Shown: one piece after another, positions 5,885 to 35,864 of the stretch | Layout: every line of letters begins with the position of its first letter | How positions within the stretch are numbered: the stretch's first letter is position 1 | Assembly: GCA_050950825.1 (NCBI GenBank) | Contig: JBMNIH010000002.1 | Span: 32,001-96,000, forward strand | Length of the DNA stretch: 64,000 nucleotides | Reading direction: 5' to 3' | From: Clostridia bacterium | Lineage (GTDB): Bacteria; Bacillota; Clostridia; JAAYHZ01 | Notes under the pieces: generated by a model | What the model was told of the DNA's origin: nothing | The model's database searches: none | The model's input: the letters and a program-made list of their open reading frames with translations, nothing else | Position numbers and translations under genes: made by a program

Positions 5885-5899
5885 AAGGACAGTTCTCAA
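5885..5899 (-). repeat. Degenerate RAYT-associated repeat copy
   Basis: Minus strand TTGAGAACTGTCCTT, 2 mismatches to consensus; core in loop of a GTTGA/TTAAC stem. Confidence 0.5.
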
Positions 5900-5915
5900 C
5901 AAAAATATACCTTGA

Positions 5916-6740
5916 CATCAGTTCTCAAGATCCACTGTCTCAGATCTTTGCAAGAAGTTAGATCCCATCGTGGAGGCTTTTAGAACTCGTCCTCTGCAGT
6001 GCCACTATCCCTTTCTCATAGTGGATGCCATCTTTGTAAATGTGCGGGAAAATGGTCGCGTACAATCAAGTGGTTTGTTGATAGCCACTGCAGTGAATGA
6101 GGAAGGCTATCGCGAAATCATAGGGTTTCAATTAGCCAACAGTGAATCCGAAAGCAGCTGGGGTGAATTCTTTTCCTCTCTTAAAGAAAGAGGGCTAAAG
6201 AATGTTGATTTGGTTACCTCTGACGACCATAAAGGGTTGGTCAAAGCTGTTAGAAGGCACTTTCAAGGCGCTGGTTGGCAACGCTGTCAAACACACTTTT
6301 CCAAGAACATTTTGGATCATACACCGAAGGCGCTGCAACCTGAAATTAAAGAAGAGCTACGCCGGCTTTATGAGGCCGTTGACCTTGAGAGTGCTCGTAA
6401 CATCAGAGATGGGATAATCCAAAATTATGAAGCCAAGGCGCCGAAAGCCACGGCTATTCTGGACGAGGCATTTGACGATATCACTGCTGTTCTGGCCCTG
6501 CCCTTAAGGTATCGAAAACGGCTTCGTACTACAAATAGTGTGGAAAGACTCAACCAGGAAATTCGTCGTCGTGAACGGGTTATTCGAATCTTTCCCAATG
6601 CATCATCAGCCATACGGCTTATGGGTGCTTTATTAATGGAACAGCATGAAAAGTGGCAAACAGGACACAAATATTTCAATATGCAGTTGTATTACCAGAT
6701 GCGGAAAGAGAACGATTCGAAGTCCGGTACTGCTGCCTAA
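5916..6740 (+). pseudogene. IS256-family (Mutator-like) transposase, N-terminally truncated
   Basis: FSRSTVSDLCKKLD, IVDA, TSDDHKGL, WQRCQTHF (CxxH), LRTTNSVERLNQEIRRR; in-frame TGA at 5913 and N-terminal part absent. Confidence 0.9.
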
Positions 6741-6745
6741 GATCG

Positions 6746-6907
6746 CATTTATTCCACGGTCTGTTGACAACGAGCCTCTCATGGCATGTTTTCCGGCATC
6801 GGGGCCATCCCCCACAGTAACAGGGATGGGCTTCATAGAAGGTGGATGATGCCCGGCTATCAGCCTAACATGCCATGTAACTCATTGTCAACAGCTTTCG
6901 CGGCATA
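6746..6907 (-). other. Structured hairpin element, copy 1 (in IS256)
   Basis: Nested stems CTGTTGACAA/TTGTCAACAG, ATGGCATGTT/AACATGCCAT, GGCATC/GATGCC; homologous to copy 2. Confidence 0.8.
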
Positions 6908-7088
6908 GATAGCGTCAATATACATTCGGAAATAAAAAGAGAGAGTTCACCCTTATGATAAGATTAAATCTTGTCTGTATCATATATCATTTCCATCAAT
7001 TTTTCCACATTTGTTTTTTTAATTGATTATTACACATCACCTATTTAAGAATTCATGAAGACAATAGCAAATGCACAAGTAAAGTACT

Positions 7089-7254
7089 CATTTATTCCAC
7101 GGTTCGCTTTACGACGAGCCTCTGCCGGCATGTTTAGTGGCCTCTGCGGCATCTTCCTACAGGGTGAAGCCGGATACGGCTTTGTGTGTTTGATGCCAGG
7201 CAGACAAGCCTAACATGCCGTCTACTCATCGTAAAGCGACTTTCGCGGCATAAA
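7089..7254 (-). other. Structured hairpin element, copy 2 (in ISLre2)
   Basis: Nested stems TCGCTTTACGA/TCGTAAAGCGA, CGGCATGTT/AACATGCCG, GGCATC/GATGCC; same flanks as copy 1. Confidence 0.8.
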
Positions 7255-7297
7255 GCCTACCGTCACACGGTTACAAAGTCATAGCGGTTCAAGCTGC

Positions 7298-8436
7298 TTA
7301 TGCGTCCCAAGCCAGTGTGGTCATATTCTTTAGCCACTTCATACTGCTCCTTTCCAAACCATGTATGTGACGTCTGGTATCTTCCGCATACGTCCATTTT
7401 GAATGTCTTCTTCTCAGATCTCTTATCAATTCTTCTTGTGCTTCACGCCTTTCCTTTTGCTTTTTTCGTTGTTTTTGATATTTTAGCAAGTCAAGAATCT
7501 TACCGCCGTTTCTTTTGTACGCTCTGAGCCTTGCCATGCGGTCGCAACCCAATTCGCTCCATCCCATTGGTCTGCTGCTCATTCTTGCCGACAATACATG
7601 GCTTATTTGCCCTTCTATGCAATATGTCCAGCCGCTTGTTTCTTCCACTCGGGTTTTTATCCCTTGCCAATGATTTAGAAAATATCTTAACGCATCTTCC
7701 ACTTCTTGCTTCTTGTTTTCACTTTCCGTAACCTTCAGGATCTGCTCATAGATATTCTTCAATTCCTTTTTGTCCAAACGATTCAAGGCTCCCCAAATCC
7801 AGTCTTTCACCTCGTCCGCGCTATCGTAAAGATGCGCCACTGACCTGTTTATATATTTCATCATATGGTATTTATCAAGGACATATTTGCTGTTCTCCAA
7901 ATATTCGCATCCTTTTTTTATCCACGAAGCTCCGTCTCCGACTACGTATATTCTCTCAAGATAGTCCGTATCGTATGTTTTTTCTATGTATTCGGCAACC
8001 TCCATCCAAAGCTTTTCGTTGCCTTTGCCACCCTCGTAAATACCGCAAAAGTATTTTTTTCCGATCAGCTTATATCTGGGATTCTTGGATGCTTCCCCCG
8101 ATTCATTGATAATATCCTCGAATACACAAACAAGCTTAGGCATCAGGGTATTAATCTTATGGCCCCTCGCATCTCGCTTCAAATCGCCCTTTTCATTCCA
8201 AAACTGTGCCGCCACATGATCTTCATCGGCCATGACATGAAGCCTTTTTATCTTCTTCTTTCCTTCCGGTTCCGGCATCGGCATGTCCGCCTCAATCTCA
8301 TGTACCAGATCCATTACGGCTTGTTTGCTAATGCCTTCTTCCGCTTTTATGCTCGCATTCTCTCCGCCTTTGCGGTAACTGCTGTCTATACTTTCTTCTA
8401 AGGCTCTCGCAGCTGCGCCTAGCGTTACCTTCTGGT
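7298..8436 (-). pseudogene. ISLre2-family (UPF0236) transposase, N-terminally truncated
   Basis: ADEDHV, GDGASWIK, LDKYH, IEGQISHVLSARMSSRPMGWS; frame stays homologous upstream of Met 8314 (QKVTLGAAARALEESIDSSYRKGG) to the junction at ~8436. Confidence 0.85.
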
Positions 8437-8585
8437 CGCGGCATAAACGCTTGCGACCATAGGCTGATTGCTACATTTAAAATGCCGAGGTAATTTACAC
8501 ACTAATTTGGACTTGACTTCAATAAACCATAATCATATAGTCATATTAAATTTTAAGATAAATAGGGATTAATAGAGAGTTTGGC

Positions 8586-9035
8586 ATGACAAAGGGTATT
8601 ATAACGATTTCTTTATCGGTTTTGCTTGTATTTTTATTTTTCGGCTGCACGAGCAAAATCATTGACGAAGAGTCTTTCGACAAAACGAAAACGGTACATG
8701 AGACGAATGATACCGAAGAAAAAACGGAGTATGTCCGAATATCAAGCGAGGAAGCAAAACGAATGATGGAAGAGCCGGAGAGTTATATTATTCTTGATGT
8801 TCGAACAGAAGCCGAATTCTCGGAAGGACATATTAAAGGAGCCGTTCTTATTCCTCACGATAAAATCAAAGAGCATGCCGGTGATTTGCTTCCCGATAAA
8901 GATCAAATCATACTGATCTATTGCCGATCAGGCAACCGAAGTGCATATGCTTCTTTGGAGCTGATAGAATTAGGCTATAAAAATGTATATGATTTCGGTG
9001 GTATCATCGATTGGCCTTATGATATAGAAAAATAA
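8586..9035 (+). CDS. Rhodanese-like lipoprotein
   Basis: Lipobox FFGC; ILDVRT..EFSEGHIKGA; active loop YCRSGNRS. Confidence 0.9.
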   Translation: MTKGIITISLSVLLVFLFFGCTSKIIDEESFDKTKTVHETNDTEEKTEYVRISSEEAKRMMEEPESYIILDVRTEAEFSEGHIKGAVLIPHDKIKEHAGDLLPDKDQIILIYCRSGNRSAYASLELIELGYKNVYDFGGIIDWPYDIEK

Positions 9036-9047
9036 CGGACAACTATA

Positions 9048-10001
9048 TCATAGATAATGGATTCTTTGCTTGATCTCACTTTTCCTCAGCAAATTTCTCA
9101 TAATTTCTTTGCATTTTGGCATGTTCATCATTTGAAATCCTTTTTTGTTTAGCCGTGCTATTTGCGACAAAGTCAGATTACCGATTATTTTACCGATTTC
9201 CTTGTATCCTAAGTTGCATAAGCATCGAATTAAGAAAACGGCAACGGCTTTTATAGGAGCAAGGCTTCGATCGTATTTCACCTTGATTAAATCCGTATCC
9301 GGTATGCCGAATTCTTCGGCAACGGTGTGCAAAACGGTTTCCGGATCCAAATCACGCTTGTATACGGTTCGTTCGCTGCGATACTCGTAGGCAGGTTTAT
9401 GTATAAATTCATCAATCCTTTCAAAAAGCTTTTGGTCGATTACAACTCTTCCAAGTCTCGACACGAATTCTACGTACCGCTTTAACGCCTCATCGGGCTT
9501 ATGATGAAACTTTGACAAAATGTATTCTTTATCGATCAGTCCGAATTCGTCTTCCTTTTGTCCGATGTATATGCCGTAAGAGGAAAACGGATAGTCCCGG
9601 ACACAATCACGATATCGTGATATGTCTTTCGGATTGTTATGAATGTACGCAGATACTACCAATTCATAACGCTCGTTCTCAATCACAACATTTTTATATC
9701 GGTCTTGAAACAAGGGACCTAAGCGTTTGTATTTCCGATTGTAGTACAGAACATAGCTTAAGTTGAGGCCTTGCATAAATTTGGACATGTCACAGCCTTG
9801 AGGATCAAAATGAATGTGCACGTGAGTGTCCATAAGACAATAAGCCAAAATTTTGCATTGGTATTTTCTTTGGTATTTTGCCATGCGTTTTAAATATTCT
9901 CTTTTGTCTTCATCGTCTCGGAACAATTTTATCTCGCTGATACTCCTGCACATAATGTGATGATTCGCTTCGGGATTTTTCTTTCGTGCCGTTCTTGCCA
10001 T
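9048..10001 (-). CDS. RAYT-like HUH/Y1 tyrosine transposase with C-terminal DnaA-domain-IV-like HTH
   Basis: YCLMDTHVH (HUH), LFQDRY, AYIHNNP (catalytic Tyr), YPFSSY; tail VAEEFGI...LGYKEIGKIIG; no tnpB adjacent. Confidence 0.85.
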   Translation of the reverse strand: MARTARKKNPEANHHIMCRSISEIKLFRDDEDKREYLKRMAKYQRKYQCKILAYCLMDTHVHIHFDPQGCDMSKFMQGLNLSYVLYYNRKYKRLGPLFQDRYKNVVIENERYELVVSAYIHNNPKDISRYRDCVRDYPFSSYGIYIGQKEDEFGLIDKEYILSKFHHKPDEALKRYVEFVSRLGRVVIDQKLFERIDEFIHKPAYEYRSERTVYKRDLDPETVLHTVAEEFGIPDTDLIKVKYDRSLAPIKAVAVFLIRCLCNLGYKEIGKIIGNLTLSQIARLNKKGFQMMNMPKCKEIMRNLLRKSEIKQRIHYL

Positions 10002-10129
10002 ATTCTTTCACACTAAAACAACCGTTTTCCTCATTATATAGCAAGCGTTAAACATTAAGTGAGTTTCATAGCAAATGAGATTCATCTTCTTGTATTTTGA
10101 CGGTTTCTGTCGAAGAGTATTTATAAATA

Positions 10130-10180
10130 GGAAGGGGACGTTCCTTCAATTCGGATGAGAATTCGGTACCGTCCCCTACC
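10130..10180. repeat. REP-like imperfect hairpin of two degenerate repeat units upstream of the RAYT
   Basis: GGAAGGGGACG...CGTCCCCTACC arms with inner AATTC/GAATT; minus strand starts GTAG-GGGACG. Confidence 0.7.
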
Positions 10181-10186
10181 CTTACG

Positions 10187-11770
10187 TTATTTACATCTGT
10201 CAGCAACCTTTTGCATATTTCCGGCAAGAATCATCAATTTCTGATCAATAGGAACATCAGCGTAAACCACCCATCCCAATTGCTGTCTCGGATCTCTCAT
10301 GGGTGCATCCGTACCGAACATGAATTTTTCGGGTCCGATTTTTTCAGATAAATATTCCACCATACCCCACGGAACCGTTGTATAGGTCAATTGCAAATAG
10401 ACATTCGGATTTGCCAATGCAACCTCCGAATAATCATCCGCCACTTCGTAGGACCGTCCTCCATGATCCATAAAGAAGGAAACGTTCGGATATCTCTTTG
10501 CCAATTCATCGATATCTTGCATGTATTGACCGTGGTTATACCCTCCGGGGTCGGCTAAGCAAAAGAGGTGTTTATCATTTGCCAACTCCCACCACTTTTC
10601 ATATCTTTTATCCGTATATCGGAGATGAGAAAGGTTATAAAAAGGCTTTAATCCTTTAAATCCATACTGAACATGCCATTTATAGACATCGGCAGCAACG
10701 TCTTCCGAATAATTGGGGTCGATATTGGCATAACCTAGAACTCTATCAGGATACTTTTTCATAGCATTTAAGGTAATATAATTACCGCCTTCATAATCGG
10801 CAAAAATTGTGAGCCATGCGGCTATGGTCATTTTATCGATTCCCAAGCAATCGTATGCTTTAACCATATTGTCAATGTCCGATTTCAACATCGGTCTTCC
10901 TGTACCGTGACAACCTCCGTCTTCAATCAGATGAGTATGCGAATCAAAAACCGGTACACTGATAGGTTTTCCCAACGCGGCTTCGGTCATCAGAAAATCA
11001 CCGTCCGGTAACTTAACGGCTTTCGGTTCTATACCGGTTAGTCTTGCTATGTTTTTGTAAGCGATCATATCCTTCTCTTCTTCGGATATTCTTGCATAAT
11101 CAATAAGTGCTCTATGAGCTCCCGGACTTTTGAAAGGCATATTGGTTCCGAATACAAAGCGATGGGCACCGAACTTTTCGCACAAATACTCGATGTTTTC
11201 ATTGCTTTGGAATGAAGTAAAATCCGTGTATGTATTCGGGTACTTGGTCATTATGCTGTATAAGTACCTTTCTTGTCCCCATGATGCCCCCTGAAGAATA
11301 ACATGCAAACCGGGATGATGAGATAAAACGGCATTTAAGTCGTTATACGAAACTTCATACCAATCTATCAAAAGAGGAATCCCTGCTTTCTCTAAACCCG
11401 TAAGTTGTTTTCCTACCGTATCTTCATCAAATGAATAAAAATGCTTGCTTGGAAACATCTTTGCTAAACGAATATTGTTTTCTTTCATTTGTGTAATAAA
11501 CGTGTCAATATCGGGGAAATCACCGCATCCATCCGGTAATAACACCCAACAACCGTATAAACGATCACTTTTCTTCAGTTCGTCAAGTAAAAGACGGTTT
11601 CCGTATTCAGGCGAATAATGTTTTGCCAATCCATGATATGCAAATGCAGCGGCAATTCCCGTACGATCCATTTCACGCAAGATATCTTCTGTTTTCCATT
11701 TTTGCGCGGGATGCTTGTAGGCATACTTACCGAGACATAAATCACTATCAATATATATTCGATTTTTCAT
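10187..11770 (-). CDS. Tandem amidohydrolase_2-domain protein
   Basis: Two TIM-barrel repeats ending FVFGTNMP and FMFGTDAP; DSHTH metal motif only in second. Confidence 0.8.
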   Translation of the reverse strand: MKNRIYIDSDLCLGKYAYKHPAQKWKTEDILREMDRTGIAAAFAYHGLAKHYSPEYGNRLLLDELKKSDRLYGCWVLLPDGCGDFPDIDTFITQMKENNIRLAKMFPSKHFYSFDEDTVGKQLTGLEKAGIPLLIDWYEVSYNDLNAVLSHHPGLHVILQGASWGQERYLYSIMTKYPNTYTDFTSFQSNENIEYLCEKFGAHRFVFGTNMPFKSPGAHRALIDYARISEEEKDMIAYKNIARLTGIEPKAVKLPDGDFLMTEAALGKPISVPVFDSHTHLIEDGGCHGTGRPMLKSDIDNMVKAYDCLGIDKMTIAAWLTIFADYEGGNYITLNAMKKYPDRVLGYANIDPNYSEDVAADVYKWHVQYGFKGLKPFYNLSHLRYTDKRYEKWWELANDKHLFCLADPGGYNHGQYMQDIDELAKRYPNVSFFMDHGGRSYEVADDYSEVALANPNVYLQLTYTTVPWGMVEYLSEKIGPEKFMFGTDAPMRDPRQQLGWVVYADVPIDQKLMILAGNMQKVADRCK

Positions 11771-11868
11771 TGAAAACCTCCAATAATAGAGTCGGTATAA
11801 CTATACTGGAATGATTGTAGCACAGTATGGGTATAAGCTTTCCGCGTATTTTTGGTTTATTTAGAATT

Positions 11869-11886
11869 ATTGAGAACCGTCCCTTC
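11869..11886 (+). repeat. RAYT-associated repeat copy
   Basis: ATTGAGAACCGTCCCTTC, intergenic. Confidence 0.85.
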
Positions 11887-11906
11887 CAAAAAAAATATCC
11901 CTTCCT

Positions 11907-11958
11907 AATAAAACGACACCTCTCCGATTCAATTGTATAAGTCGAAGAGATGTCGTTT
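11907..11958 (-). terminator. Probable terminator of the solute-binding protein gene
   Basis: AAACGACA...TGTCGTTT long imperfect stem with minus-strand T-tract. Confidence 0.6.
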
Positions 11959-12000
11959 ACTTTGCTTATGGATAACTCCGTTTATAGAGCAGTTTTTATT

Positions 12001-13980: not shown

Positions 13981-13998
13981 GAAGGGACGGTTCTCAAT
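13981..13998 (-). repeat. RAYT-associated repeat copy
   Basis: GAAGGGACGGTTCTCAAT, exact reverse complement of 11869-11886. Confidence 0.85.
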
Positions 13999-18975: not shown

Positions 18976-19016
18976 AATGAGAACCGTCCGATTTAAAAAT
19001 GGGGACGGTTCTCATT
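18976..19016. repeat. Inverted pair of RAYT-associated repeats (14-bp perfect stem)
   Basis: AATGAGAACCGTCC-N13-GGACGGTTCTCATT. Confidence 0.85.
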
Positions 19017-19038
19017 CATTATTGAATTTAACAATGAT

Positions 19039-19440
19039 TTACCCCGGTATTACTTTTACAAAAAACTTTCTGTTTCTAGGACCGTCAAACTCGCAAAAAT
19101 AGATACACTGCCAAGTACCCAATTTGAGTCTGCCATTTTCAATAATGACTGTACAAGACGATCCTGTCAAAGAGGCTTTTATATGTGCATGAGAATTACC
19201 TTCAAAATGAAGGTGTTGTCTGCTGAATGGAAATACACGATTAAGATCGGATAAAATATCGGTAACTACATCCGGATCGGCTTTTTCATTTATGGTTATT
19301 CCTGCTGTTGTATGCGGAACGAAAACCACGGCAAATCCTTCTTTAACGCCCTTCTCATCTATTGCCCTTTCGACAAAGGACGTTATATCATAGAAAGCTT
19401 GATCTTTTGTTGTTTTTATTTGAAACTCCATAAAATTCAC
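19039..19440 (-). CDS. yjbQ: YjbQ/UPF0047 family protein
   Basis: PHTTAGITINE, EGNSHAHIKA, LGTWQ.IYFCEFDGPR. Confidence 0.9.
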   Translation of the reverse strand: MNFMEFQIKTTKDQAFYDITSFVERAIDEKGVKEGFAVVFVPHTTAGITINEKADPDVVTDILSDLNRVFPFSRQHLHFEGNSHAHIKASLTGSSCTVIIENGRLKLGTWQCIYFCEFDGPRNRKFFVKVIPG

Positions 19441-19479
19441 CTTTTACCATTACTCTTTGTAGCGACATAATCCATAAAT

Positions 19480-19495
19480 ATGAGAACCGTCCCCC
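19480..19495 (+). repeat. RAYT-associated repeat copy
   Basis: ATGAGAACCGTCCCCC, 1 nt from the stop codon of the esterase gene. Confidence 0.85.
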
Positions 19496-19496
19496 A

Positions 19497-20582
19497 TTAT
19501 GTCCTTTTTATGTATTCCATATACCGATGCCAATCATAACGACTGAAGTAATGGGTACCGGCACGAAGATGATATGCAATGTTTCCTTCGTGAAATTCAT
19601 CTCCGCCTTTTGGGTATTCATTCGGATGAATAAAACCTTTTAAGCCCAATAACTCAAATACGGGACCGGCCGCAACACAAGAAAGATATTCCGAATAGGG
19701 ATCAGCCCATTGGTCTAGTGTTGCGCTTCCTACATACACCTTTCTAGGTGCCGACAAAGCCAGTAAAAAATGCTGATCAAAAGGCAAAAGATGTTCCTTC
19801 TCGGCATACCGGGTATAATTCTCGCAAAACCAATGCGGAAATGTTCTCGTAATGTGCAGAATATGTTCTCCGGTCTTTTCCCGGGTTATAGCAGCACCGG
19901 AACATCCGGAATCATTGGAAATCACATAAGAAAACCTAGGATCGAGACCTCCGGCTAACAAAGCGGTTTTCCCTAATCTGGAATGTCCAACAACCGCAAT
20001 TTTCGAACGATCAATTGAATCTATTGTTTGGACATAATCCATAACGCGAGACGCCGCCCAAGCCCACAATGCAATGGCTCCGCAATCTTCGGGATTTCTT
20101 TTTCTACCCTGAAAGATAAGACCTCCTAATCCTTCCGATAAACCTTCCTTCTTGTCCGGAACAATATCTTGATAGCAGAATGCAAAGATTGCAAATCCGT
20201 TATCACAGATCTCCTCCACAGGCATGTATTTATCGGGTATATTATCTCTAAAGCAAATATGAACAAAAGCAGGAATCTTTTTTTCTACCCTGTTCGGTAT
20301 GGCACTGTACATCGGAAATTGATAATTGCCTTCTCTTAATTCAAGATTCAGCATAATTTTTGATAATGTGACGGTTCCGCCGCAATAATTTTTATCTTCG
20401 CTTTCGATTTCGGCCGACCATTTTTCCGGTATCGCCGGAGGGAAGCCATATTCCTGTGAACACAAAAGATGTATGATTTCTTTTCTCCGCGCAGCCCAAT
20501 CGTCTTTCGTTACGACTTTCCTACCGTCATTAAACTGCAGAACATCCGGTACCATTCGTTTTTTTAATTCTTCTTGTAACAT
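19497..20582 (-). CDS. Carbohydrate esterase family 15-like (glucuronoyl esterase) alpha/beta hydrolase
   Basis: WAWAASR, GHSRLGK nucleophile motif, SGCSG, PFDQH.LLAL.APR, WADP. Confidence 0.85.
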   Translation of the reverse strand: MLQEELKKRMVPDVLQFNDGRKVVTKDDWAARRKEIIHLLCSQEYGFPPAIPEKWSAEIESEDKNYCGGTVTLSKIMLNLELREGNYQFPMYSAIPNRVEKKIPAFVHICFRDNIPDKYMPVEEICDNGFAIFAFCYQDIVPDKKEGLSEGLGGLIFQGRKRNPEDCGAIALWAWAASRVMDYVQTIDSIDRSKIAVVGHSRLGKTALLAGGLDPRFSYVISNDSGCSGAAITREKTGEHILHITRTFPHWFCENYTRYAEKEHLLPFDQHFLLALSAPRKVYVGSATLDQWADPYSEYLSCVAAGPVFELLGLKGFIHPNEYPKGGDEFHEGNIAYHLRAGTHYFSRYDWHRYMEYIKRT

Positions 20583-20631
20583 ATTACTACCCTCCAATTA
20601 CACATTTGGATACAAAAACATCCGCTTGTTA

Positions 20632-21744
20632 TCATTCCGCTGCTTTAAAGTTATAAATGGGCTTTATTATTTCCTCTATAATTGCAGTATCTTGTATGTT
20701 CTTAAAGATTTCTTCTGCAGGCTTATATGCCAAAGGGCATTCGTCCAAGGTATCTTTATTAATACAAGTAGAAAAAATGCCTTCCATTGTTGCCTTGTAT
20801 TGGGTTAAGGTCAATTTTTCTTTTGCTTGTGTTCTGCTCATTAAACGTCCGGCTCCGTGCGGTGCCGAATAATTCCATTCCGAATTTCCTTTACCGATGC
20901 AGATAAGACTACCGTCTCGCATATTCATAGGGAGCAAAAACCTTTCTCCTTTTTTCGCAGATACGGCTCCTTTTCTTAAAATCATACTGTCGGTGTCTAT
21001 ATAATTGTGGATGGTTGTAAATCGATCAACAACGGTTAAATTCATACCCTCTACGATTTCTAGAACCATGGCTTTTCTATTCAGCATAGCAAACTGTTGT
21101 ATTATCTTCATATCATGAAGATAGTCATTGAATAATTTACCGGAAACATAAGCTAAAGTTTTCGGGATTTTACTTCCGGTTTTTTCACTTCTAAGTGCTT
21201 CGTATCCTTTTCGCTGATAATGGTTCGCCACTTCCAGCCCTAATTGTCGGCTTCCGCTATGAACCACAAGATAAAGCCGGTCTTGCTTGTCCTTATTGAC
21301 TTCAATAAAGTGATTACCCCCACCTAAGGTTCCGATACTCAACCTTGCACGCGATAAGTTAACGTGACCTTTACACCTTAATTCATAAAGATCAATTCTC
21401 TCATTATATGCATGAGCATTTCTTCGAACATCAAAACCGGAAGGAATATTTGCACGGATATATTTGTCCAATTTATGTAAATCCAATGATTTCTCCTCTA
21501 ATCGGACGACTTCCATACCGCAGCCAATATCTACACCTACTAAATTCGGTACGATCTTGTCCGTTATCGTCATGGTGGTTCCGATGGTACATCCTGCACC
21601 GCTATGAACATCCGGCATGATTCTTATCTTGCTACCTTTAACAAACTCTTGGTCACACAGTGTCTGTATTTGTTGAATGGCACCGTCATCAACAAGGTCG
21701 GTAAAAATAATGGCATTTGCATATTTTCCTGTTACCTCTATCAT
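20632..21744 (-). CDS. rtcB: RtcB-family RNA ligase
   Basis: MPDVHSG, VGVDIGCG, GTLGGGNHF, HSGSR, HNY, SAPHGAGR, DECP.AYK. Confidence 0.92.
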   Translation of the reverse strand: MIEVTGKYANAIIFTDLVDDGAIQQIQTLCDQEFVKGSKIRIMPDVHSGAGCTIGTTMTITDKIVPNLVGVDIGCGMEVVRLEEKSLDLHKLDKYIRANIPSGFDVRRNAHAYNERIDLYELRCKGHVNLSRARLSIGTLGGGNHFIEVNKDKQDRLYLVVHSGSRQLGLEVANHYQRKGYEALRSEKTGSKIPKTLAYVSGKLFNDYLHDMKIIQQFAMLNRKAMVLEIVEGMNLTVVDRFTTIHNYIDTDSMILRKGAVSAKKGERFLLPMNMRDGSLICIGKGNSEWNYSAPHGAGRLMSRTQAKEKLTLTQYKATMEGIFSTCINKDTLDECPLAYKPAEEIFKNIQDTAIIEEIIKPIYNFKAAE

Positions 21745-22918: not shown

Positions 22919-22976
22919 AGGGACAAATAAATTGAGAAATGTCCCCTTTTTATAGTTTTGATGAGAACCGTCCCCC
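22919..22976 (+). repeat. Cluster of RAYT-associated repeats
   Basis: Degenerate ATTGAGAAATGTCCCC (22931-22946, pairing with AGGGACA at 22919) and ATGAGAACCGTCCCCC (22961-22976). Confidence 0.8.
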
Positions 22977-28448: not shown

Positions 28449-28469
28449 AATAGATCCTACGATTACACG

Positions 28470-28501: not shown

Positions 28502-28524
28502 GTTTTCATAAAAATCCGATAAAT

Positions 28525-28965: not shown

Positions 28966-29118
28966 AACTCACCTTCTTTGTATCTTTTCAATAGAAAGAA
29001 AAATCGGTAATGCATCCCGGCTATTCGATATTTCAGTAACCGATAAAACGCAAAATAGCCGATCAATCCGATTGATTTTTTAAATACGGTTGAACTTCCA
29101 CCAAACTTATATCCTCCG

Positions 29119-29724
29119 CTAAGAATTCTTTAGATAACCTTGTTCAACCGATTCTTCGACGATTTTTTCAATATATTCCCATAAAATTTTGGAGCCTTCT
29201 TGTACATGCCTGTTTTTTATCAACACTTGTTCTTTGGTTACATTAAACCGCTTCCACTGTGTTCCGTCGGTTCTATAGTTATGGTAAATAGGCATAAAGC
29301 GATCTAGAGCATTTGCAAATTTGGATTCATTTGTTTTTCTTTCGTCATATTCGATCCATAGGTCATAAAAAAGCTTTCGTTGATCTTCCGGAAGCAAGCC
29401 AAAAATTCTTTCGGCCGCCTTTCGCTCTTCTTTTGCCCGCAATTCGGGATCAACGATGCTATATGCAAACACATCTCCTGCATCGATTTCCACGATATCA
29501 TGGAGTAAAATCATTTTGAAGACTCTTACCATATCCATATCTTCAAAATTGGCGTATTCCCATAAAACAAATGCAGCGACAGCCATATGCCAAGAATGTT
29601 CCGCATCGTTTTCTTGTCGAGATTTATCCAGTAACAAAGTGTTTCTTACGACTTGCTTTGCTTTGTCAATTTCAGCCAGAAAATGTAATTGTCGCTCCAG
29701 TTTATTTAGCAAATTTGAATCCAT
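29119..29724 (-). CDS. HD-domain phosphohydrolase
   Basis: ENDAEHSWH, LLHDIVEIDAGD, ALDR. Confidence 0.9.
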   Translation of the reverse strand: MDSNLLNKLERQLHFLAEIDKAKQVVRNTLLLDKSRQENDAEHSWHMAVAAFVLWEYANFEDMDMVRVFKMILLHDIVEIDAGDVFAYSIVDPELRAKEERKAAERIFGLLPEDQRKLFYDLWIEYDERKTNESKFANALDRFMPIYHNYRTDGTQWKRFNVTKEQVLIKNRHVQEGSKILWEYIEKIVEESVEQGYLKNS

Positions 29725-29742
29725 TCCCGAATCTTTAGTCCT

Positions 29743-30222
29743 TTATTTTGATATGTCGTCACTAATACTACAATAAACCTTATCATTCTTCAACAGAATA
29801 ATTCCATACGATGCGGAATTGCCTGAAGCTCTTATGGACCCGGGATTCATGACCCAAACATGGTCTTCCGGGTGTTCCAATAAGGGAGAATGTGTATGTC
29901 CAAAAAGTATGATATCGGCTTTTTCGCTTAATCCTTTAAAAAAAAGACGGGCAAGACCAAAATTTACATCATATCGGTCCCCGTGTGTGATGAATATTCT
30001 TTTTCCATTCCATTCGATAATTTTATCGGAAGGATACCCGGTTACTGCATCCGTATTTCCGGGTACCATTTCTATGCGAAGATCCGGAAATATTTTTTGC
30101 AATCTCTTTCCATCGGTGATATGGTCACCTAAATGGATAACCGTTTGCGGTTTCTCCTTTTTTATAACCGCTTCCATGGTTTTAACATCTTTATGCGAGT
30201 CGGCAAATACAACGATTTTCAA
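29743..30222 (-). CDS. YfcE/MJ0936-family metallophosphoesterase
   Basis: ADSH, HLGD, GNTD, THG, FGHTH, NPGS. Confidence 0.9.
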   Translation of the reverse strand: MKIVVFADSHKDVKTMEAVIKKEKPQTVIHLGDHITDGKRLQKIFPDLRIEMVPGNTDAVTGYPSDKIIEWNGKRIFITHGDRYDVNFGLARLFFKGLSEKADIILFGHTHSPLLEHPEDHVWVMNPGSIRASGNSASYGIILLKNDKVYCSISDDISK

Positions 30223-30249
30223 GCCTCATTCCCCTTCCCTTTACAATTA

Positions 30250-30267
30250 ATTGAGAACCGTCCCTTC
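30250..30267 (+). repeat. RAYT-associated repeat copy
   Basis: ATTGAGAACCGTCCCTTC, identical to 11869-11886; inside a 52-bp intra-operon gap. Confidence 0.85.
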
Positions 30268-30274
30268 ACTTTTA

Positions 30275-30646
30275 TCATAACTTATGACCGCAAATGGGAC
30301 AGAATATAAAGCGATCATCATCGGTTACATATCCGCAACTTAAGCATTTTCTCTGTTGATTAGAAGAGGTATAGGCTTCGCGAAGATCCTCTCTATTAAT
30401 TGAATTTTTCTGTCCTCTTTCCAAAGCTTGTCCAAGCTCCTTATCAATTAAGAAAACGGTATTGCAGCAGGATGTTTTTACATAATACCGTTTATTCCAT
30501 CGGAAAAGAGGAATAAAGAACAGACTGAAATAGGTATATGTTACGAAAACTTCATAACTACCGTATCTGCCGCATCGCGGACATATATCCGGTTGACGAA
30601 ACTCAAGCTGTTTTTCTCCTTGATTAATGCCCATGATTAAAAACAT
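30275..30646 (-). CDS. Zinc-ribbon domain protein
   Basis: CPRCG, FSLFFIPLF, CC, CLSCG, FCPICG. Confidence 0.85.
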   Translation of the reverse strand: MFLIMGINQGEKQLEFRQPDICPRCGRYGSYEVFVTYTYFSLFFIPLFRWNKRYYVKTSCCNTVFLIDKELGQALERGQKNSINREDLREAYTSSNQQRKCLSCGYVTDDDRFIFCPICGHKL

Positions 30647-30671
30647 TTTTTCTCTACCCTATTACAAAGGT

Positions 30672-31118
30672 TTAAATTTTTGCCGTCTCAATTCTTGCTT
30701 TTTCGGCCTTTTTTATGCTCTCTATAAGCCATTCCGGAGAATCCGTACAAGAAAGAATCTCAGGATATGTCATCCAATAGGCCTCGCTAACTTCATTATT
30801 ATCCGGTTTTAATTCTCCCGCAAGATATTCACACATGAAAACCATATCCACAACCGGTAGTTCGGGATTTACGTAGAATAGCTTGCTTTCCAAATAATAC
30901 ATGGTACTCGAAACCGTAATACCGACTTCCTCGGCGATTTCTTTTTTTAAAGTCTCTTCAAGGATATTAGGCGTAAAGGAATCGGCCTCTACCTTCCCTC
31001 CGACCAATGACAATAAACCGGGGGCATGGTCCTCCTTATCGCTCCTCCTAATAATCAACCACCTATTACCCTTATAGATCGCAGCCTCCACATTAACAAT
31101 GTAAAGCTTGTTCTCCAT
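30672..31118 (-). CDS. NUDIX hydrolase
   Basis: GGKVE...LKKEIAEEVG Nudix box. Confidence 0.9.
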   Translation of the reverse strand: MENKLYIVNVEAAIYKGNRWLIIRRSDKEDHAPGLLSLVGGKVEADSFTPNILEETLKKEIAEEVGITVSSTMYYLESKLFYVNPELPVVDMVFMCEYLAGELKPDNNEVSEAYWMTYPEILSCTDSPEWLIESIKKAEKARIETAKI

Positions 31119-31130
31119 GATCTTCTCCTT

Positions 31131-31685
31131 TCATCCCGTGGAATTCTCCTTGACTTTCTTTCGATAATCCTCTCGGGTTAAAGAATAACAGACATCGTCA
31201 TAGATATTTCCGTTGAATATAACCGATGCGCGCTTTAGTGTCCCCTCGTATTGGAAACCGCATTTTTCAATCACTCTTTTGGAACGAATATTGCTCGGGT
31301 AATGGTAGACCGAAATCAAATCCAATCCCATGTCTTCAAAAGCATAACGTATAACCTCTCTGGCTGCTTCGGTCATTAACCCTTTGCCCCAATAATCCTC
31401 TGACAAAACATAACCTAACATTCTGACATTATCATTATTCCGCTTTCTATCTATATGCAAGCCAATGGATCCTATCACTTTACCCGTGTTTTTATCGGTT
31501 ATTGCCCACACATCGTTATTCTCTATAAACATTTTCAGTATATCGAACGATACTTCCTTGCTTTCATGTGGACGCCAACCTGCATTCGGACCGACTCTCG
31601 GGTTTTTTGCATATTCATAAAAATCATCCAAATCACTTTCACGAAATTTCCTTAATATCAAGCGCTCGGTTATTAATGTTTTCAT
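31131..31685 (-). CDS. RimJ/RimL-type GNAT acetyltransferase
   Basis: TERLILR, LGYVL..YWGKGLMTEA, N.RSKRVIEKCGFQYEG. Confidence 0.9.
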   Translation of the reverse strand: MKTLITERLILRKFRESDLDDFYEYAKNPRVGPNAGWRPHESKEVSFDILKMFIENNDVWAITDKNTGKVIGSIGLHIDRKRNNDNVRMLGYVLSEDYWGKGLMTEAAREVIRYAFEDMGLDLISVYHYPSNIRSKRVIEKCGFQYEGTLKRASVIFNGNIYDDVCYSLTREDYRKKVKENSTG

Positions 31686-31812
31686 GGTTTTCCTCATCAA
31701 TATGCTACATCCGTTGTGATTGTATATTATATCACTAGATACATTCTATGGCAAATTTATCTTATGTTTCAAAAACACAAGCTATTCTCGTACTTTCTTT
31801 CCTAACTCCAAT

Positions 31813-31842
31813 AAAAAAAGAAGGCAGGATTAACCTACCTTC
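31813..31842 (-). terminator. Rho-independent terminator
   Basis: Minus strand GAAGGTAGG-TTAAT-CCTGCCTTC-T7. Confidence 0.85.
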
Positions 31843-31867
31843 AAGAGCTAGGGAGTATTTATGAATA

Positions 31868-33820
31868 TCAACCTTTCGGTTGAATGTGTATGAGGTCAAA
31901 TACGGTTCCCGTAATCTCGATGTCATCGACGGTATATACGGCACATTTGTCTCCTTTATACGCGTATACCGTCATGACATACGGGGACTTTGCTCTTCTT
32001 CCTTCCCAATCCAAGGTATCTTCCGCTAGCGGCAAATAATATTCCCAAGTGATTTCATTCGTTCTTTTGGTTGAATCCAATTCAAAGGTTGTATCTTCGG
32101 GAAAATACGTGTATTCGATACCATAGTCTTTTTTCATGTCGTAAACATAGTTTTTTCCTTCAGGACGATATGTCATAGCCTCCAATTCCGGACTGAATCT
32201 TATTATAACTTTATCGGCATAACCGTCTGTAAAAACTTTGATTTTTACTTTCTCCAAGCTTAAGAATCGATGATCATTTTTTGGTAATACATTCCCGTGA
32301 ATATCCGTTCCTCCATCCCATCGGTTAATGCTGCCTTCAATGGTCGCACTCACCTTCAGCTCCGGATCCACGATCTTGAAAAATACATAATGCCTCGGGA
32401 TTCTCATGGGAGGTACCAAATTGTATAAATAGTGCATATCGTATAAATTCGTCAGATATTTTGCCGGCACATTGTAATTGTATCCGTAGTTTATATCTTT
32501 AAGAATCTCACGTTTTCCATTGCCAACTAAAGAAAAGTACACTCCTGAAAAATTAGGATCGGTATCCGGTATGACATTTTGCAATATCAAAGTATCCGGC
32601 ATGCTTTCCACTTCAATAGGATTGTTGTAATTGTCGTTTACCAGCCGATTATTCTTGTCATAGAGGTAAAAATCTACGAAAAAAGGAATCTCGTTTTCAT
32701 ACTTTAGCTTTGTATACGCCGAAATCGTTATACTCACGGGATCCATCCGGGTTGAGTAAACCGTTAATCGGAAAGTTTCCGCTTCTATGTATGTCGTATG
32801 ACGATAAGAGTAGATCGGTATGCTTTTTTGGTCTAGCAGTACCCAGTTGTTTCCGGACTTTCTTTCCAGCTTCACCATGGTTATTGTATTGTTATGAATC
32901 TCATAATCCATATGCAAATCCAAGTAAGCAGGATAATTATCGACAAACACCGGATAATCGGGATTATTGGTTGCCACATAGTCATTGCAAGTGGCATGGA
33001 AATATACATTTAAAGAAGGCGTACTGTCGGGAGGGTCTTCCGGAAGATCCGGGATTTCCACGGGATCCGGTGCCAGAAACTCGAAGATGATGGAATTTAT
33101 GAAAAAGTAACCGACCGCACCTCCGTCTTGAAATGTACCGTTACCTATTTTCAAATCATTAAGGTAATACTCGGTTTCTACACCATAGTTGGATACCTTA
33201 ACGATAGGATTGCTAGGATGATACAATTCCCCGGATTTTCCTTGAATCCAATTGTAATCAAAACCATCCTTCGCCGCCAAAACACCCAACAATTGATTCG
33301 TGGTCTTGTGATAGATGGAAAACTTGATGTAGTCACTGCTATAATGAGGAGCAGGTATATTAAAATCTAAGTAATAACTTTCTAATTTTAATTTGTAGTA
33401 AGGTTTAAATGAAACAAATAGTTTTCGATTCTGTACATCAAGTTCGTAGTAAAATGTTCCTTCTACATATAAATACTCTGTCGCTTTATCATTATCATTT
33501 ATAATATTAATCCTTAAGTTTTTAATATCTCCTCCATTATCTAAGTATCGGTTAAGTTCTTCTGTAAATGGTTTTACAATAGTAATTTGTTCGCTAATAC
33601 AATTTGTAAAGTTTTCAGATGCTTCTTCATTGTTAATTAGTTCCCCTATTTCTTTATCATTAATGGTTCGCGAGATATTGCCAGTCCAATAACCTCCCGA
33701 GTGATGCCAAACTTCTGTATACCATGTTGCGGTAATTCTTCCTAAATTGGTTTCTGCTTTAACCACAGGTGTGAAAAGAAAAACCAATAATGTTATTGTA
33801 AAGAATATTATCTTTTTCAT
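31868..33820 (-). CDS. Secreted hypothetical protein
   Basis: Signal peptide ending VKA; Pro-rich linker PDPVEIPDLPEDPPD; beta-rich, Tyr-rich domains. Confidence 0.7.
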   Translation of the reverse strand: MKKIIFFTITLLVFLFTPVVKAETNLGRITATWYTEVWHHSGGYWTGNISRTINDKEIGELINNEEASENFTNCISEQITIVKPFTEELNRYLDNGGDIKNLRINIINDNDKATEYLYVEGTFYYELDVQNRKLFVSFKPYYKLKLESYYLDFNIPAPHYSSDYIKFSIYHKTTNQLLGVLAAKDGFDYNWIQGKSGELYHPSNPIVKVSNYGVETEYYLNDLKIGNGTFQDGGAVGYFFINSIIFEFLAPDPVEIPDLPEDPPDSTPSLNVYFHATCNDYVATNNPDYPVFVDNYPAYLDLHMDYEIHNNTITMVKLERKSGNNWVLLDQKSIPIYSYRHTTYIEAETFRLTVYSTRMDPVSITISAYTKLKYENEIPFFVDFYLYDKNNRLVNDNYNNPIEVESMPDTLILQNVIPDTDPNFSGVYFSLVGNGKREILKDINYGYNYNVPAKYLTNLYDMHYLYNLVPPMRIPRHYVFFKIVDPELKVSATIEGSINRWDGGTDIHGNVLPKNDHRFLSLEKVKIKVFTDGYADKVIIRFSPELEAMTYRPEGKNYVYDMKKDYGIEYTYFPEDTTFELDSTKRTNEITWEYYLPLAEDTLDWEGRRAKSPYVMTVYAYKGDKCAVYTVDDIEITGTVFDLIHIQPKG

Positions 33821-33857
33821 AGTGTTTTCTCTTTCGTAAGAAAAATTTACTTATAAC

Positions 33858-35066
33858 TTACCAATCGGTAAACTCAAACTTCCATGTGATCTCTATTTCT
33901 TTTTCTACTCTTCCAAAATCATCATACATATAACAAGCTGCTTTTGGGAACTTATACCTGAATGTATAATTATACCAACTATTATTTCCATAATATTCCG
34001 AAAACGATATTAAGTATAGTATAGATATGTTATCAATTTTATTAAAATCATATTCCGCTCTATACTCATACCATTTACCTGTTTCAAGAGGTGGAACACC
34101 GCCTGCAGTTCCATACAAAATTTCTGTAAACCATAATTTATCAATATTCTCACCTGTAGTGCCTTCTTTATATTGGACACTAACTATATTAGATGCAGTA
34201 AAACCTTCCGGCAATTTCGGCATATAGAATCTAACTCTTCCATCCTCGCTGAATTGAAAGGATTTGAAATGAGTCAAAGCGAAATGTTCCTGCATTTCTT
34301 TACTCATATAATAATCGACACTGTATTCCGTTTCTTCCTTGATCAAATCCTTTTCGTAATCAAATATCACACCTTCGACTTCCACTTTCCCTTTAGGTGG
34401 AGTAAAGCCTACGTCAGGGTAGATTCTCCTTGAAGGATCAACAACTCTTGCCAATACGGCAGCAGCTTCCGCCCTAGTTAATTGATTTTTGTTTCCAAAT
34501 GATCCGTCCGGATATCCGGTTATTAGCCCTATTGCGTAAATATGAAGTAGAAAGTACGATGAACCGTCGATCTGAGAATATGGGGAAAAAGATATTCCCC
34601 TCTCGTATTCGGATAGCTTGTACATCAAGTTTACCCTTCCGCCATTCATTTGAACACCCGGGATTTCATCGATTGCGGCATATAATATGACACCCATTTG
34701 TTCTCTGTTGATGGGAACCGTGTAATCTTTAAACTCCCTGTCATCATTCACATATGCCATCCAATTCATTTCTTTTGCCGTATCGATAAATCCCTGTGCC
34801 CAATAATCGCTTGTTGTCTCAGCAGGCTTGTAGTTTAGTGCCAAAACAAGACATTTTAAAAATTCATCGATTCTGAACGGTTCATTAGGTTTGAAAGTAC
34901 CGTCAGGAAAACCGTTAATAATTCCTAGGTCCATCAACAGCCGAACATCTTCGGCAAACCATTCATTCCCAACTACATCTTTCATTAGTCTATCAGCTCT
35001 AGATGCTCTTGGTAAAATCATCAAAGACAGCGTAACCGCTAAAAGAACACATAATATCTTTTTCAT
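33858..35066 (-). CDS. S-layer homology (SLH) domain protein
   Basis: Signal peptide; GIINGFPDGTFKPN, PINREQM, GLITGYPDGSFG...LTRAEAA. Confidence 0.85.
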   Translation of the reverse strand: MKKILCVLLAVTLSLMILPRASRADRLMKDVVGNEWFAEDVRLLMDLGIINGFPDGTFKPNEPFRIDEFLKCLVLALNYKPAETTSDYWAQGFIDTAKEMNWMAYVNDDREFKDYTVPINREQMGVILYAAIDEIPGVQMNGGRVNLMYKLSEYERGISFSPYSQIDGSSYFLLHIYAIGLITGYPDGSFGNKNQLTRAEAAAVLARVVDPSRRIYPDVGFTPPKGKVEVEGVIFDYEKDLIKEETEYSVDYYMSKEMQEHFALTHFKSFQFSEDGRVRFYMPKLPEGFTASNIVSVQYKEGTTGENIDKLWFTEILYGTAGGVPPLETGKWYEYRAEYDFNKIDNISILYLISFSEYYGNNSWYNYTFRYKFPKAACYMYDDFGRVEKEIEITWKFEFTDW

Positions 35067-35243
35067 TCGTTATCTTCTCCTTAATTTTTCTTTTGCTCAG
35101 CGCATATTATACCATATAATTTTCCTTTTTTCCCACATGTAGAGTTGTGTCACATTTTGTCGAATTATGGTTCAACAAATGAATTAAATGGTTTCCGTTC
35201 TTTATTTTCGCAATAAAAATATAAGAGAATAATATGGAATAAC

Positions 35244-35753
35244 TCAGAAAAGTTCTTTAGATTTTAATGTTTTAATAATAATGTCTAAGATTTGCTCGAC
35301 ATTTTTTCCATCGCTATTTACGGTGATATCGGCATATTGTTCATATAAAGGGATTCTTTCCAAATAAAGATCTTTAAGAGATTGCCCTTTTTTAAGCACA
35401 ATACCTCTGGTGGTAATATTCCTGATTCTACGTATCATCTCTTCATAAGAAATTTTTAAATAAATAATAATCCCTTCTTGTTTTAATGCTCTCATCGCCT
35501 TATTGCTGTAGACTACACTACCTCCGGTAGCAATAACGGCATTTTTAAAGCAGGCTTCACAAATACATGCTTCCTCGATCTCCAAAAACCTCTGAATTCC
35601 TGCTTGTTTGATAATGTCTTGTAAAAGCCTTCCCTCTTTTTGTTGAATTAATATATCGGTATCTATAAAATCTAAACCCAACGTTTTAGCCGCAAGTACT
35701 CCTATCGTACTTTTTCCTGCACCCGGCATACCGATTAACACAATATTATTCAT
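35244..35753 (-). CDS. aroK: Shikimate kinase
   Basis: GMPGAGKST P-loop, FIDTD, VIATGGS, ER.PLY. Confidence 0.9.
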   Translation of the reverse strand: MNNIVLIGMPGAGKSTIGVLAAKTLGLDFIDTDILIQQKEGRLLQDIIKQAGIQRFLEIEEACICEACFKNAVIATGGSVVYSNKAMRALKQEGIIIYLKISYEEMIRRIRNITTRGIVLKKGQSLKDLYLERIPLYEQYADITVNSDGKNVEQILDIIIKTLKSKELF

Positions 35754-35847
35754 AGCTCACCTCTTTTTGTTCAGTCTATACTACCATAGAAAACAGTACC
35801 TATCAACATTATGGAATTTATATACATCCTATGGTACAATGAAAAAA

Positions 35848-35864
35848 ATTGAGAAGCGTCCCCT
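35848..35864 (+). repeat. RAYT-associated repeat copy (variant)
   Basis: ATTGAGAAGCGTCCCCT; minus strand begins GTAG-GGGACG. Confidence 0.7.

Follow-up and report, generated by a model that had tools for sequence, protein, structure and literature searches.

The systems closest to the one reported here are the TIRYTs. In the text of Di Nocera, De Gregorio and Rocco (2013; PMC3733652), a TIRYT is a RAYT-like gene with terminal inverted repeats that are not REPs, and the complete unit is called a TIRtron; the repeats carry the motif GGGGWSAS and make up moderately abundant families in some genomes, and 26 examples are given. As described by Quentin, Siguier, Chandler and Fichant (2018; PMC6006769), TIRYTs correspond to TnpA-REP subclass 2.1, in which subclass 2.1.2 has a Bac_DnaA_C-like domain, and the TIRYT repeat does not resemble a DnaA box. 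In the account of Bertels, Gallie and Rainey (2017; PMC5581495), RAYT Group 1 is widespread, also in Clostridia, and has the highest share of near-identical duplicates among the true RAYT groups. Here we analyse a stretch of 64,000 nucleotides (nt) from a Clostridia bacterium (contig JBMNIH010000002.1, positions 32,001 to 96,000, forward strand; hereafter the window), which contains a gene for a Y1 HUH nuclease together with a family of short GGGG-led repeats.

Analysis of the gene, its surroundings and its relatives suggests that the locus is probably a TIRtron, that is, a domesticated RAYT-like Y1 HUH nuclease (a TIRYT) and a passenger gene lying between inverted stemless repeats of 16-21 nt, in which GGGGACGGTTCTCAAY is followed by an A/T-rich part. 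The same repeat family includes another 20-30 or so copies, solo or in doublets, elsewhere in the genome. In its predicted features the locus matches the described TIRYT/TIRtron class (TnpA-REP subclass 2.1, RAYT Group 1), the likeness to Group 1 being one of description, and because it fits a published class we file it as a putative member of that class. An initial annotation of this DNA had proposed a RAYT/repeat system with a different site architecture; the site is indeed non-REP and stemless, but such an architecture has already been published under the names TIRYT and TIRtron (PMC3733652, PMC6006769). The kind of system is thus already described. A literature search gave nothing on this motif or on clostridial TIRYTs, although the supplements and figures of PMC3733652, PMC5581495 and PMC6006769 may list the clade or the core; a search with the motif as a string gave no work on bacterial repeats among the matches listed, and the literature consulted included no biochemical work on TIRYTs.

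The nuclease gene and its inverted repeats

The components of the putative TIRtron in the window are the following.

Positions 9048..10001, minus strand: gene for a Y1 HUH nuclease of 317 amino acids with a C-terminal helix-turn-helix (HTH) like that of DnaA domain IV, identified from Pfam, residues and an AlphaFold (AF2) model; of TIRYT / TnpA-REP subclass 2.1 type.
Positions 10134..10176, minus strand: candidate gene-proximal TIRtron end, variant GGGGACGGT[accgaa]TTCTCA paired with an inverted CGTCCCC, lying 133-175 nt before the start of the HUH gene.
Positions 8586..9035, plus strand: passenger gene with a rhodanese domain (Pfam Rhodanese, 70.8 bits), convergent with the HUH gene and within the inverted motif pair.
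Positions 5885..5900, minus strand: candidate distal TIRtron end, a degenerate copy GTTGAGAACTGTCCTT with 2 mismatches, orthologous to a canonical copy of a sister species (L014:3383).

The Y1/HUH gene that had been annotated at 9048-10001 was confirmed as an open reading frame (ORF) of 317 amino acids on the minus strand. Its product belongs to the Y1 HUH family (Pfam Y1_Tnp, 59.7 bits over residues 12-123, with a cut-off of 23) and scored 31.4 bits with Bac_DnaA_C, 0.1 under the cut-off of 31.5. The HUH motif H60-V-H62 and the tyrosine helix Y119-I-H-N-N-P (AYIHNNP) were both found, and H60, H62, Y119, H121, N123 and P124 are invariant in 12 homologues. A phmmer search against PDB sequences gave no match at E up to 0.01 and a fold search was needed, for which we used an AF2 model built on a 12-row alignment (mean pLDDT 79.7). 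Foldseek placed first the E. coli RAYT bound to a REP hairpin (PDB 4er8; E = 5.7e-5, TM to target 0.70), followed by the TnpA proteins of ISDra2, IS608 and IS200, and the C-terminus of the model matches DnaA domain IV on a DnaA box (1j1v; TM 0.78, root-mean-square deviation 2.2 A, 28% identity) and 3pvp. By domain architecture alone, the predicted protein falls in TnpA-REP subclass 2.1.2, as it has the C-terminal HTH of that subclass.

Exactly two Y1_Tnp genes are present in the assembly (3.55 Mb, 11 contigs). The second is located on contig C4 at 435.7-436.7 kb (G000 C4:435739-436692), and its protein is 94% identical to that of the window gene. At the nucleotide level the two loci share 897 nt at 98.4% identity, a stretch that begins 7 nt ahead of the gene start and ends about 64 nt short of the stop, and the last ~20 codons and all the flanking DNA are unrelated. 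Since only these 897 nt, essentially the ORF, are common to the paralogous loci, there is no duplicated element, and the possibility of an insertion sequence (IS) with ends beyond the HUH gene was rejected. The paralogues are 94% identical in this genome and 81% identical in the sister species (G001), and identity between the species, at syntenic loci, is 71-73%. This higher similarity within genomes than across species, with unrelated flanks, indicates that the paralogues have probably been homogenised by gene conversion confined to the ORF. Two genes, both at loci syntenic with the sister species, agree with the low copy number and vertical inheritance of strict RAYTs; the abundant palindromic GTAG-led REPs that accompany strict RAYT genes were not found, the repeat here being stemless, without a GTAG head and present in 19 exact copies.

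The bracket of inverted repeats is not restricted to the window gene. The C4 paralogue has the variant GGGGACGGATCTCAAC at the same upstream position, and both HUH genes of the sister species are preceded by GGGGACGCATCTCAAC with an inverted partner, so that a variant motif lies 130-175 nt upstream of 4/4 HUH genes (two in this genome and two in the sister species). On the downstream side, an inverted canonical copy is found beyond one passenger gene; this gene encodes a rhodanese in the case of the window and the orthologous locus in G001, and a cupin in the case of C4 and the locus orthologous to it. At the rhodanese locus of the sister species the canonical copy lies just past the passenger gene. 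The non-REP inverted repeats around a RAYT-like gene by which TIRtrons are recognised are therefore seen at two loci here and at two in the sister species. In the window, the 5885 copy is cut off from the rhodanese gene by nested IS insertions, with IS homology beginning at 5920, and it shares the flank gatatgatag with the L014:3383 copy of the sister species.

The nested region extends from 5920 to 8518. An IS256/Mutator-type element (5920-6907 and 8436-8518) is split by a 1534-bp element (6908-8441) whose product is a UPF0236-family protein and of which the genome contains at least 12 near-identical copies. The outer IS begins 20 nt from the 5885 copy, and its first bases, AGTTCTCAAGA, are similar to the AGTTCTCAAC of the motif. 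Elsewhere in the assembly, outside the window, we also detected a head-to-head doublet GGGGGACGGTTCTCAAC-ATAAT-GGAGAACCGTCCCCC (G000 contig C2:512122-512156), in the orientation opposite to that of the doublet at 18976-19016; from its sequence it looks like an empty TIRtron, a REPIN-like unit of 35 nt.

To place the motif in a wider context, the 8-nt core GGGGACGG was searched around homologous genes at 80 loci from named genomes across Firmicutes (Clostridia, Negativicutes, Peptococcaceae, Syntrophomonadaceae and others), with the following result.

Core GGGGACGG, plus orientation, at most 450 nt upstream of the gene: 35/73 loci.
Core GGGGACGG, inverted, 600-1500 nt downstream: 33/73 loci.
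Core GGGGACGG, upstream and inverted downstream together: 25/66 loci.

The background frequency of GGGGACGG is 0.12 per kb on both strands, and a relaxed form, GGGG[AT][CG][AG][CG], occurs upstream at 46/73 loci. From these frequencies on either side of the gene we take the motif to be the terminal repeat cognate to this nuclease family, with its core, GGGGACGG(TTC), conserved around homologues in Firmicutes; support for a link of the gene with the motif is strong. Compared with the published GGGGWSAS, GGGGACGG fits at 7/8 positions, with the variants GGGGACAT at 22931 and GGACAGTT at 5885. The surroundings differ with the type of protein: in short homologues (about 255 amino acids, with a short HTH) the core is shown in the loop of a 5-7-bp hairpin, whereas the repeats of the long homologues, which contain the DnaA-like domain, are stemless; these repeats retain GGGAC(G/A)G(T/C)TC, and the bases after it vary by lineage. 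Local runs of solo copies were also found near long-type homologues in two other genera (loci L028 and L030).

Some of the homologous loci have features of their own. Short-type homologues (L037, L009, L043, L065 and others) carry tandem hairpin-loop repeats, 3-4 on each side of the gene, in BIME-like arrays; at L037, for example, the upstream side has four, spaced 21 nt apart, and the downstream side four in inverted orientation. A genome of another genus of the same family (G002) has 18 homologue matches, many with internal stops or cut by contig ends, and lacks the exact 13-mer; at the one G002 locus that was read (L003) there is no GGGG-led motif near the gene. These G002 homologues may represent an IS-like burst followed by decay.

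Distribution and form of the repeat family

The initial annotation listed 12 copies of the motif, all intergenic, and this inventory held. Every copy is present within 2 nt of where it had been placed, and 12/12 lie between long ORFs. We scored them against the 12-mer GAGAACCGTCCC and sorted them by number of mismatches. Six copies are exact (11872, 13984(-), 19002(-), 19482, 22963 and 30253), two have one mismatch (18979 and 35851), two have two mismatches (5886(-) and 22934) and two have three (10135(-) and 10164). For TGAGAACCGTCCC(C), or its 12-mer GAGAACCGTCCC, the window contains 8 matches at up to one mismatch against 0.22 expected, and 0/100 shuffles reach 8. At three mismatches there are 52 matches against 34 expected, so that the pair at 10131/10161 is not significant by itself; it is credible only by its context, that is, the inverted GGGGACG...CGTCCCC arrangement, the position upstream of the HUH gene and the clear inverted doublet at this site in the sister species. 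No match with up to one mismatch lies beyond 35.9 kb, in agreement with the reported absence of the motif from 36 to 64 kb, and two matches with two mismatches at 50114 and 61519 are chance-like in appearance. The copies outside the bracket are as follows.

Positions 11869..11884, plus strand: solo copy ATTGAGAACCGTCCCT with exact core, in the spacer between two minus-strand genes.
Positions 13983..13998, minus strand: solo copy with exact core, in a divergent spacer.
Positions 18976..19016, unstranded: inverted doublet TGAGAACCGTCCG - 11 nt - GGGGACGGTTCTCA, forming an 11-bp hairpin followed by a T-rich run.
Positions 19480..19495, plus strand: solo copy, 1-3 nt past the stop of a glucuronyl-esterase-like gene (19497-20597, minus strand).
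Positions 22931..22976, plus strand: two direct copies 30 nt apart, that at 22931 with 2 mismatches and that at 22961 exact.
Positions 30250..30265, plus strand: solo copy in a 52-nt spacer of a co-directional gene row, 9-10 nt past a stop codon.
Positions 35848..35863, plus strand: solo copy with 1 mismatch; a melibiase-like gene, to which it is in sense orientation, starts 22 nt downstream.

The short distances to stop codons that had been noted also hold (10 nt for the stop at 10187, 1-3 nt for 19497 and 9-10 nt for 30275). In the whole genome (3.55 Mb), the exact 13-mer TGAGAACCGTCCC occurs 19 times, and 31 copies are found at up to one mismatch. A total of 13/19 exact copies lie at most 30 kb from an HUH gene, an area that represents 3.4% of the genome (P about 2e-15), and 20/31 copies at up to one mismatch are intergenic according to crude ORF calls, compared with 10.5% of the genome (P about 7e-13). 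In 8 of these 20 intergenic copies, 3-16 nt separate the CCCC end from the stop codon of a convergent gene (8.5% expected; P = 1.4e-4). Read along the preceding gene, the elements usually come in the order stop codon, GGGGACGGTTCTCAAY, A/T run and next gene. The genome-wide scan that the initial annotation had recommended therefore revealed low copy number, intergenic bias and proximity to the HUH genes. With 19 exact copies here and 17 in the sister species, the dispersed and moderately abundant repeat family of TIRtrons is also present. The G-rich strand lies on the strand of positive GC skew in 18/23 copies, being leading-strand sequence and so lagging-strand template. An rRNA operon (5S, 23S, tRNA, 16S) is located at 39532-44613 on the minus strand, which agrees with the minus strand being the leading strand there.

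Alignment of 49 copies from this genome and the fetched sister-species loci extends the motif to about 21 nt, A/T-rich and then (G/A)TTGAGAACCGTCCCC, with no conservation outside it. The unit is not a palindrome, as had been observed. On the other hand, the short stems that the initial annotation saw around individual cores do not exceed chance: in the same 49 copies the longest enclosing stem averages 4.67 bp, and when these cores were set in random intergenic flanks the mean was 4.74 bp (P = 0.66).

The form of the motif bears on whether it has anything to do with the nuclease. It could be the operator of another factor, a promoter -35 element or one half of an intrinsic terminator, as its TTGAGA part is similar to a -35 hexamer, a -10-like hexamer follows some copies at 17 nt and the 18976-19016 doublet consists of a hairpin with a T-rich run after it. 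The promoter reading, with TTGAGA as -35 or TTCTCA on the other strand, was rejected, since no base at the -10 distance is conserved in the 49 aligned copies; most copies are also directed away from the nearest start, and promoter-like matches in the region are at shuffle level (61 vs 60.4). The terminator reading was rejected as well: terminator-like matches number 15 against 17.0 in shuffles, and the only one touching a motif is a small hairpin at 10131-10147. Rfam at gathering thresholds identified rRNA and tRNA only in the window and nothing at the motif copies. Together with the chance level of the enclosing stems, the recurrence of the bracket at 25/66 homologous loci and the clustering of copies on both HUH genes, these data make an unrelated motif highly improbable. 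A small ORF (ATG/TTG/GTG AGA ACC GTC CCC = MRTVP) was also considered and discarded, as it has no upstream ribosome-binding site and its continuations differ.

The abundance of the motif follows the gene in related genomes. We counted the 12-mer GGGGACGGTTCT in 41 relatives, 15 with a homologue and 26 without, and found at least three copies in 10/15 genomes with a homologue vs 3/26 without; a reversed control pattern gave 0-2 per genome. The proposal that HUH protein and motif belong together is thus well borne out, as both paralogues are bracketed, copies cluster at both, the core flanks Firmicutes homologues and abundance tracks the gene.

A low number of copies (19 exact), several degenerate copies and orphan copies in genomes lacking the gene would also be expected of fossil repeats, relics of a past burst on which the HUH genes no longer act. 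Against this, both genes are intact, their catalytic residues are invariant and homogenisation appears to be ongoing; moreover, the 19 copies are identical over 13 nt, as are 17 more in a species whose genes are only 70-79% identical at the nucleotide level. We regard the fossil explanation as very unlikely.

Synteny and site turnover

The window from 10.1 to 30 kb is collinear with contigs C22 and C60 of the sister species G001, at about 70-79% nucleotide identity, and the C4 motif cluster follows AdhE, a GerA operon, a class II tRNA synthetase and MutY. The initial annotation considered this an accessory region; given the collinearity and the core genes, that description is unsupported, as the region is syntenic with the sister species, core genes are present and no island was found.

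Comparison of orthologous spacers revealed both shared and changing sites. Among 23 sites, 7 have a copy in the orthologous G001 spacer, where the flanks align at only 51%, and in at least four cases G001 has the orthologous flanks with no motif between them, showing that copies both persist and turn over. The spacer orthologous to that of the 11869 copy has an inverted pair of 1-mismatch copies, the counterpart of the spacer of the 13983 copy has no copy at all, and the pair at 22931/22961 corresponds to a single copy, the motif being the longest identical run in that aligned spacer. Definition of the insertion unit from nucleotide alignment of orthologous spacers was attempted and abandoned, the spacers being too diverged.

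Persistence of copies raises the question of selection. The copies might serve the host as duplex binding sites for the HUH-HTH protein, which could, for example, control the 3' end or the transcription of the gene in front or help to organise the chromosome locally; the copies would then be landmarks under selection and not products of transposition. The genes at fixed syntenic loci in two species with catalytic and HTH parts intact, the 7/23 sites with a copy in the same sister-species spacer despite flanks down to 51%, the constant polarity from stop codon to GGGGACGGTTCTCA to next gene, the DnaA domain IV fold, which is a duplex binder, and the description of RAYTs as housekeeping-like in the text of Bertels et al. 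(PMC5581495) are all consistent with such a domesticated landmark. The at least four sites with orthologous flanks and no motif in the sister species argue against it, as does the copy number at shared sites, which differs (1 vs 2). Neither promoter nor terminator signals are tied to the motif, with no -10 at fixed spacing and only the hairpin at 10131-10147, and the genes beside the copies are functionally unrelated. We give the landmark explanation a modest chance, and continue to prefer a TIRtron with its dispersed repeats.

The clearest difference between the two species concerns the inverted doublet at 18976/19001. Its copies, 11 nt apart here, are represented in G001 by inverted copies 3.6 kb apart that bracket two ABC-exporter genes, and this genome has no orthologues of those two genes (best matches 38-49% identity). 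The comparison is suggestive of a filled versus an empty site, as far as two genomes can indicate. A metagenome scan for closer relatives gave one near-identical contig of 2.8 kb (L127), the rest having at most 66% identity and no motif behind the esterase gene. L127 is 100% identical over 1974 nt (window 18999-20972), and the identity stops 2 nt past the CCCC end of the 19001(-) copy. The DNA beyond that point in L127 (1975-2780) contains a transposase-like ORF beginning MSKTQKIRRRYTSEFKESVLKRL, presumably an IS3-family OrfA, and the element is absent from this assembly.

Sites of this type could mark junctions at which gene blocks are inserted or excised by HUH catalysis, in the manner of integron cassettes. 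Three observations point in this direction: the 18976/19001 doublet against the 3.6-kb ABC-exporter bracket of the sister species, the 19480 copy and the sister C60:16191 copy at a junction with 3.4 kb of extra genes, and, in a near-identical strain, the insertion that carries the transposase-like ORF and lies 2 nt off the CCCC end of a copy. In such an exchange, the DnaA-type HTH would anchor the enzyme, which would cleave the site at its CCCC/GGGG end and there insert or excise whole blocks of genes; this would explain the copies behind stops, their persistence in the same spacers and the 3.6-kb ABC-exporter block in G001 between copies that abut here. However, when breakpoints were compared with repeats as the initial annotation had suggested, 3/6 indels touched a motif in the 20 kb compared with the single sister genome, and 5 of about 17 spacers carry the motif; about 1.8 overlaps were expected and the excess is not significant. 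Other genes also differ at those junctions outside the bracket, and conserved core genes precede most copies. We therefore consider gene-block junctions an unlikely account of the copies, and an integron-like exchange by this enzyme equally doubtful. The earlier idea that the system may move or shuffle genes consequently remains unproven, with one suggestive filled-versus-empty site and an overlap of indels and motifs that does not exceed expectation.

Proposed mechanism and comparison with described systems

Under the preferred reading of a TIRtron with a dispersed repeat family, the HUH domain (His60, His62, Tyr119) would recognise and nick the conserved half GGGGACGGTTC, probably when that strand is single-stranded as lagging-strand template, as with IS608 TnpA, and the HTH would hold the lineage-specific half, TCTCAAY plus A/T. 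Short-range strand transfer from resident repeats would seed new copies, and seeding at short range would make them pile up close to the genes and immediately after stop codons, the position that does least harm. The two HUH genes would remain at fixed loci, homogenised by gene conversion. Binding, nicking and mobility are activities that we infer for the HUH protein from its sequence and predicted fold.

Several results do not fit easily with this proposal. Known RAYT and IS608 substrates are hairpins, and the copying of a single stemless site of 16 nt is unexplained. The gene-proximal upstream repeat is not identical to the dispersed copies, as either 1-2 central positions are changed or 6 nt are inserted. 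The NCBIfam RAYT equivalog NF047646 scored 45.2 bits on the protein, below its cut-off of 80. The strand bias is inseparable from co-orientation of the genes with replication, and the core identity of 95/105 at the shared sites is partly circular because the sites were picked by the motif. In the related genomes, G009 (97% complete), G023 (99%) and G036 (76%) have no Y1_Tnp match and nevertheless hold 5-7 genuine core copies, which means either that copies remain in the absence of the gene or that the assemblies miss it, and five genomes with a homologue have 0-1 exact copies of the 12-mer. The initial annotation had held that equal abundance of the motif in genomes without the gene would speak against it; the three gene-less relatives go some way in that direction and count against strict dependence on the gene.

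TIRYTs (TnpA-REP subclass 2.1, RAYT Group 1) are widespread, and one core of 11-12 nt, GGGGACGGTTC(T), is common to homologues across Firmicutes. Its presence in a hairpin loop with short proteins and in a stemless repeat with long DnaA-HTH proteins points to one half read by the catalytic domain and the other by the HTH. The present locus offers a compact test system, with a protein of 317 amino acids, a defined stemless site of 16-21 nt (AAAAGTTGAGAACCGTCCCC) and natural site variants beside the genes. If local clustering and the position behind stops prove to be general, they would constrain models of how RAYT-type repeats are seeded.

Compared with more distant systems, the protein shares the Y1 HUH fold with the TnpA proteins of the IS200/IS605 family (IS608, ISDra2), and the strand polarity of the copies would suit an enzyme that acts on the lagging-strand template, as IS608 TnpA does (in part from PMC6006769). 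IS608 differs in having subterminal hairpin ends in direct orientation and in being multi-copy, whereas here the ORF alone is duplicated and the ends are inverted and stemless. The E. coli RAYT of the REP-BIME system (4er8; PMC3479197) is the best structural match of the N-terminal part, with HUH and a single catalytic Tyr, and is likewise a low-copy, vertically kept gene with a dispersed cognate repeat. Its REPs are GTAG-led hairpins found by the hundreds genome-wide, in contrast with the stemless, low-copy and local repeat reported here; the E. coli protein also has no HTH domain.

The similarity is greater with the classes introduced at the outset. For RAYT Group 1, the text of PMC5581495 gives flanking 16-mers at about 12 per replicon, of the same order as the 19 exact copies here. 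The members of TnpA-REP subclass 2.1.2, as presented in PMC6006769, are long Y1 proteins with a C-terminal extension like Bac_DnaA_C or HTH_23/HTH_28, encoded by genes without adjoining REP hairpins, and both features are seen here; the difference is a repeat family that in this genome is clearly tied to the genes. With respect to the TIRYT/TIRtron of PMC3733652, position 7 of the 8-mer consensus is A in the published motif and G here, each bracket here encloses a passenger gene, and the strong clustering within 30 kb and the position 3-16 nt past stops were not found in the text consulted of that paper. In other features the two agree: a Y1 RAYT-like gene lies between non-palindromic terminal inverted repeats and not REP hairpins, the repeat is GGGG-led (published GGGGWSAS, here GGGGACGG), and the repeat family occurs as singles, dimers and groups, mostly downstream of genes.

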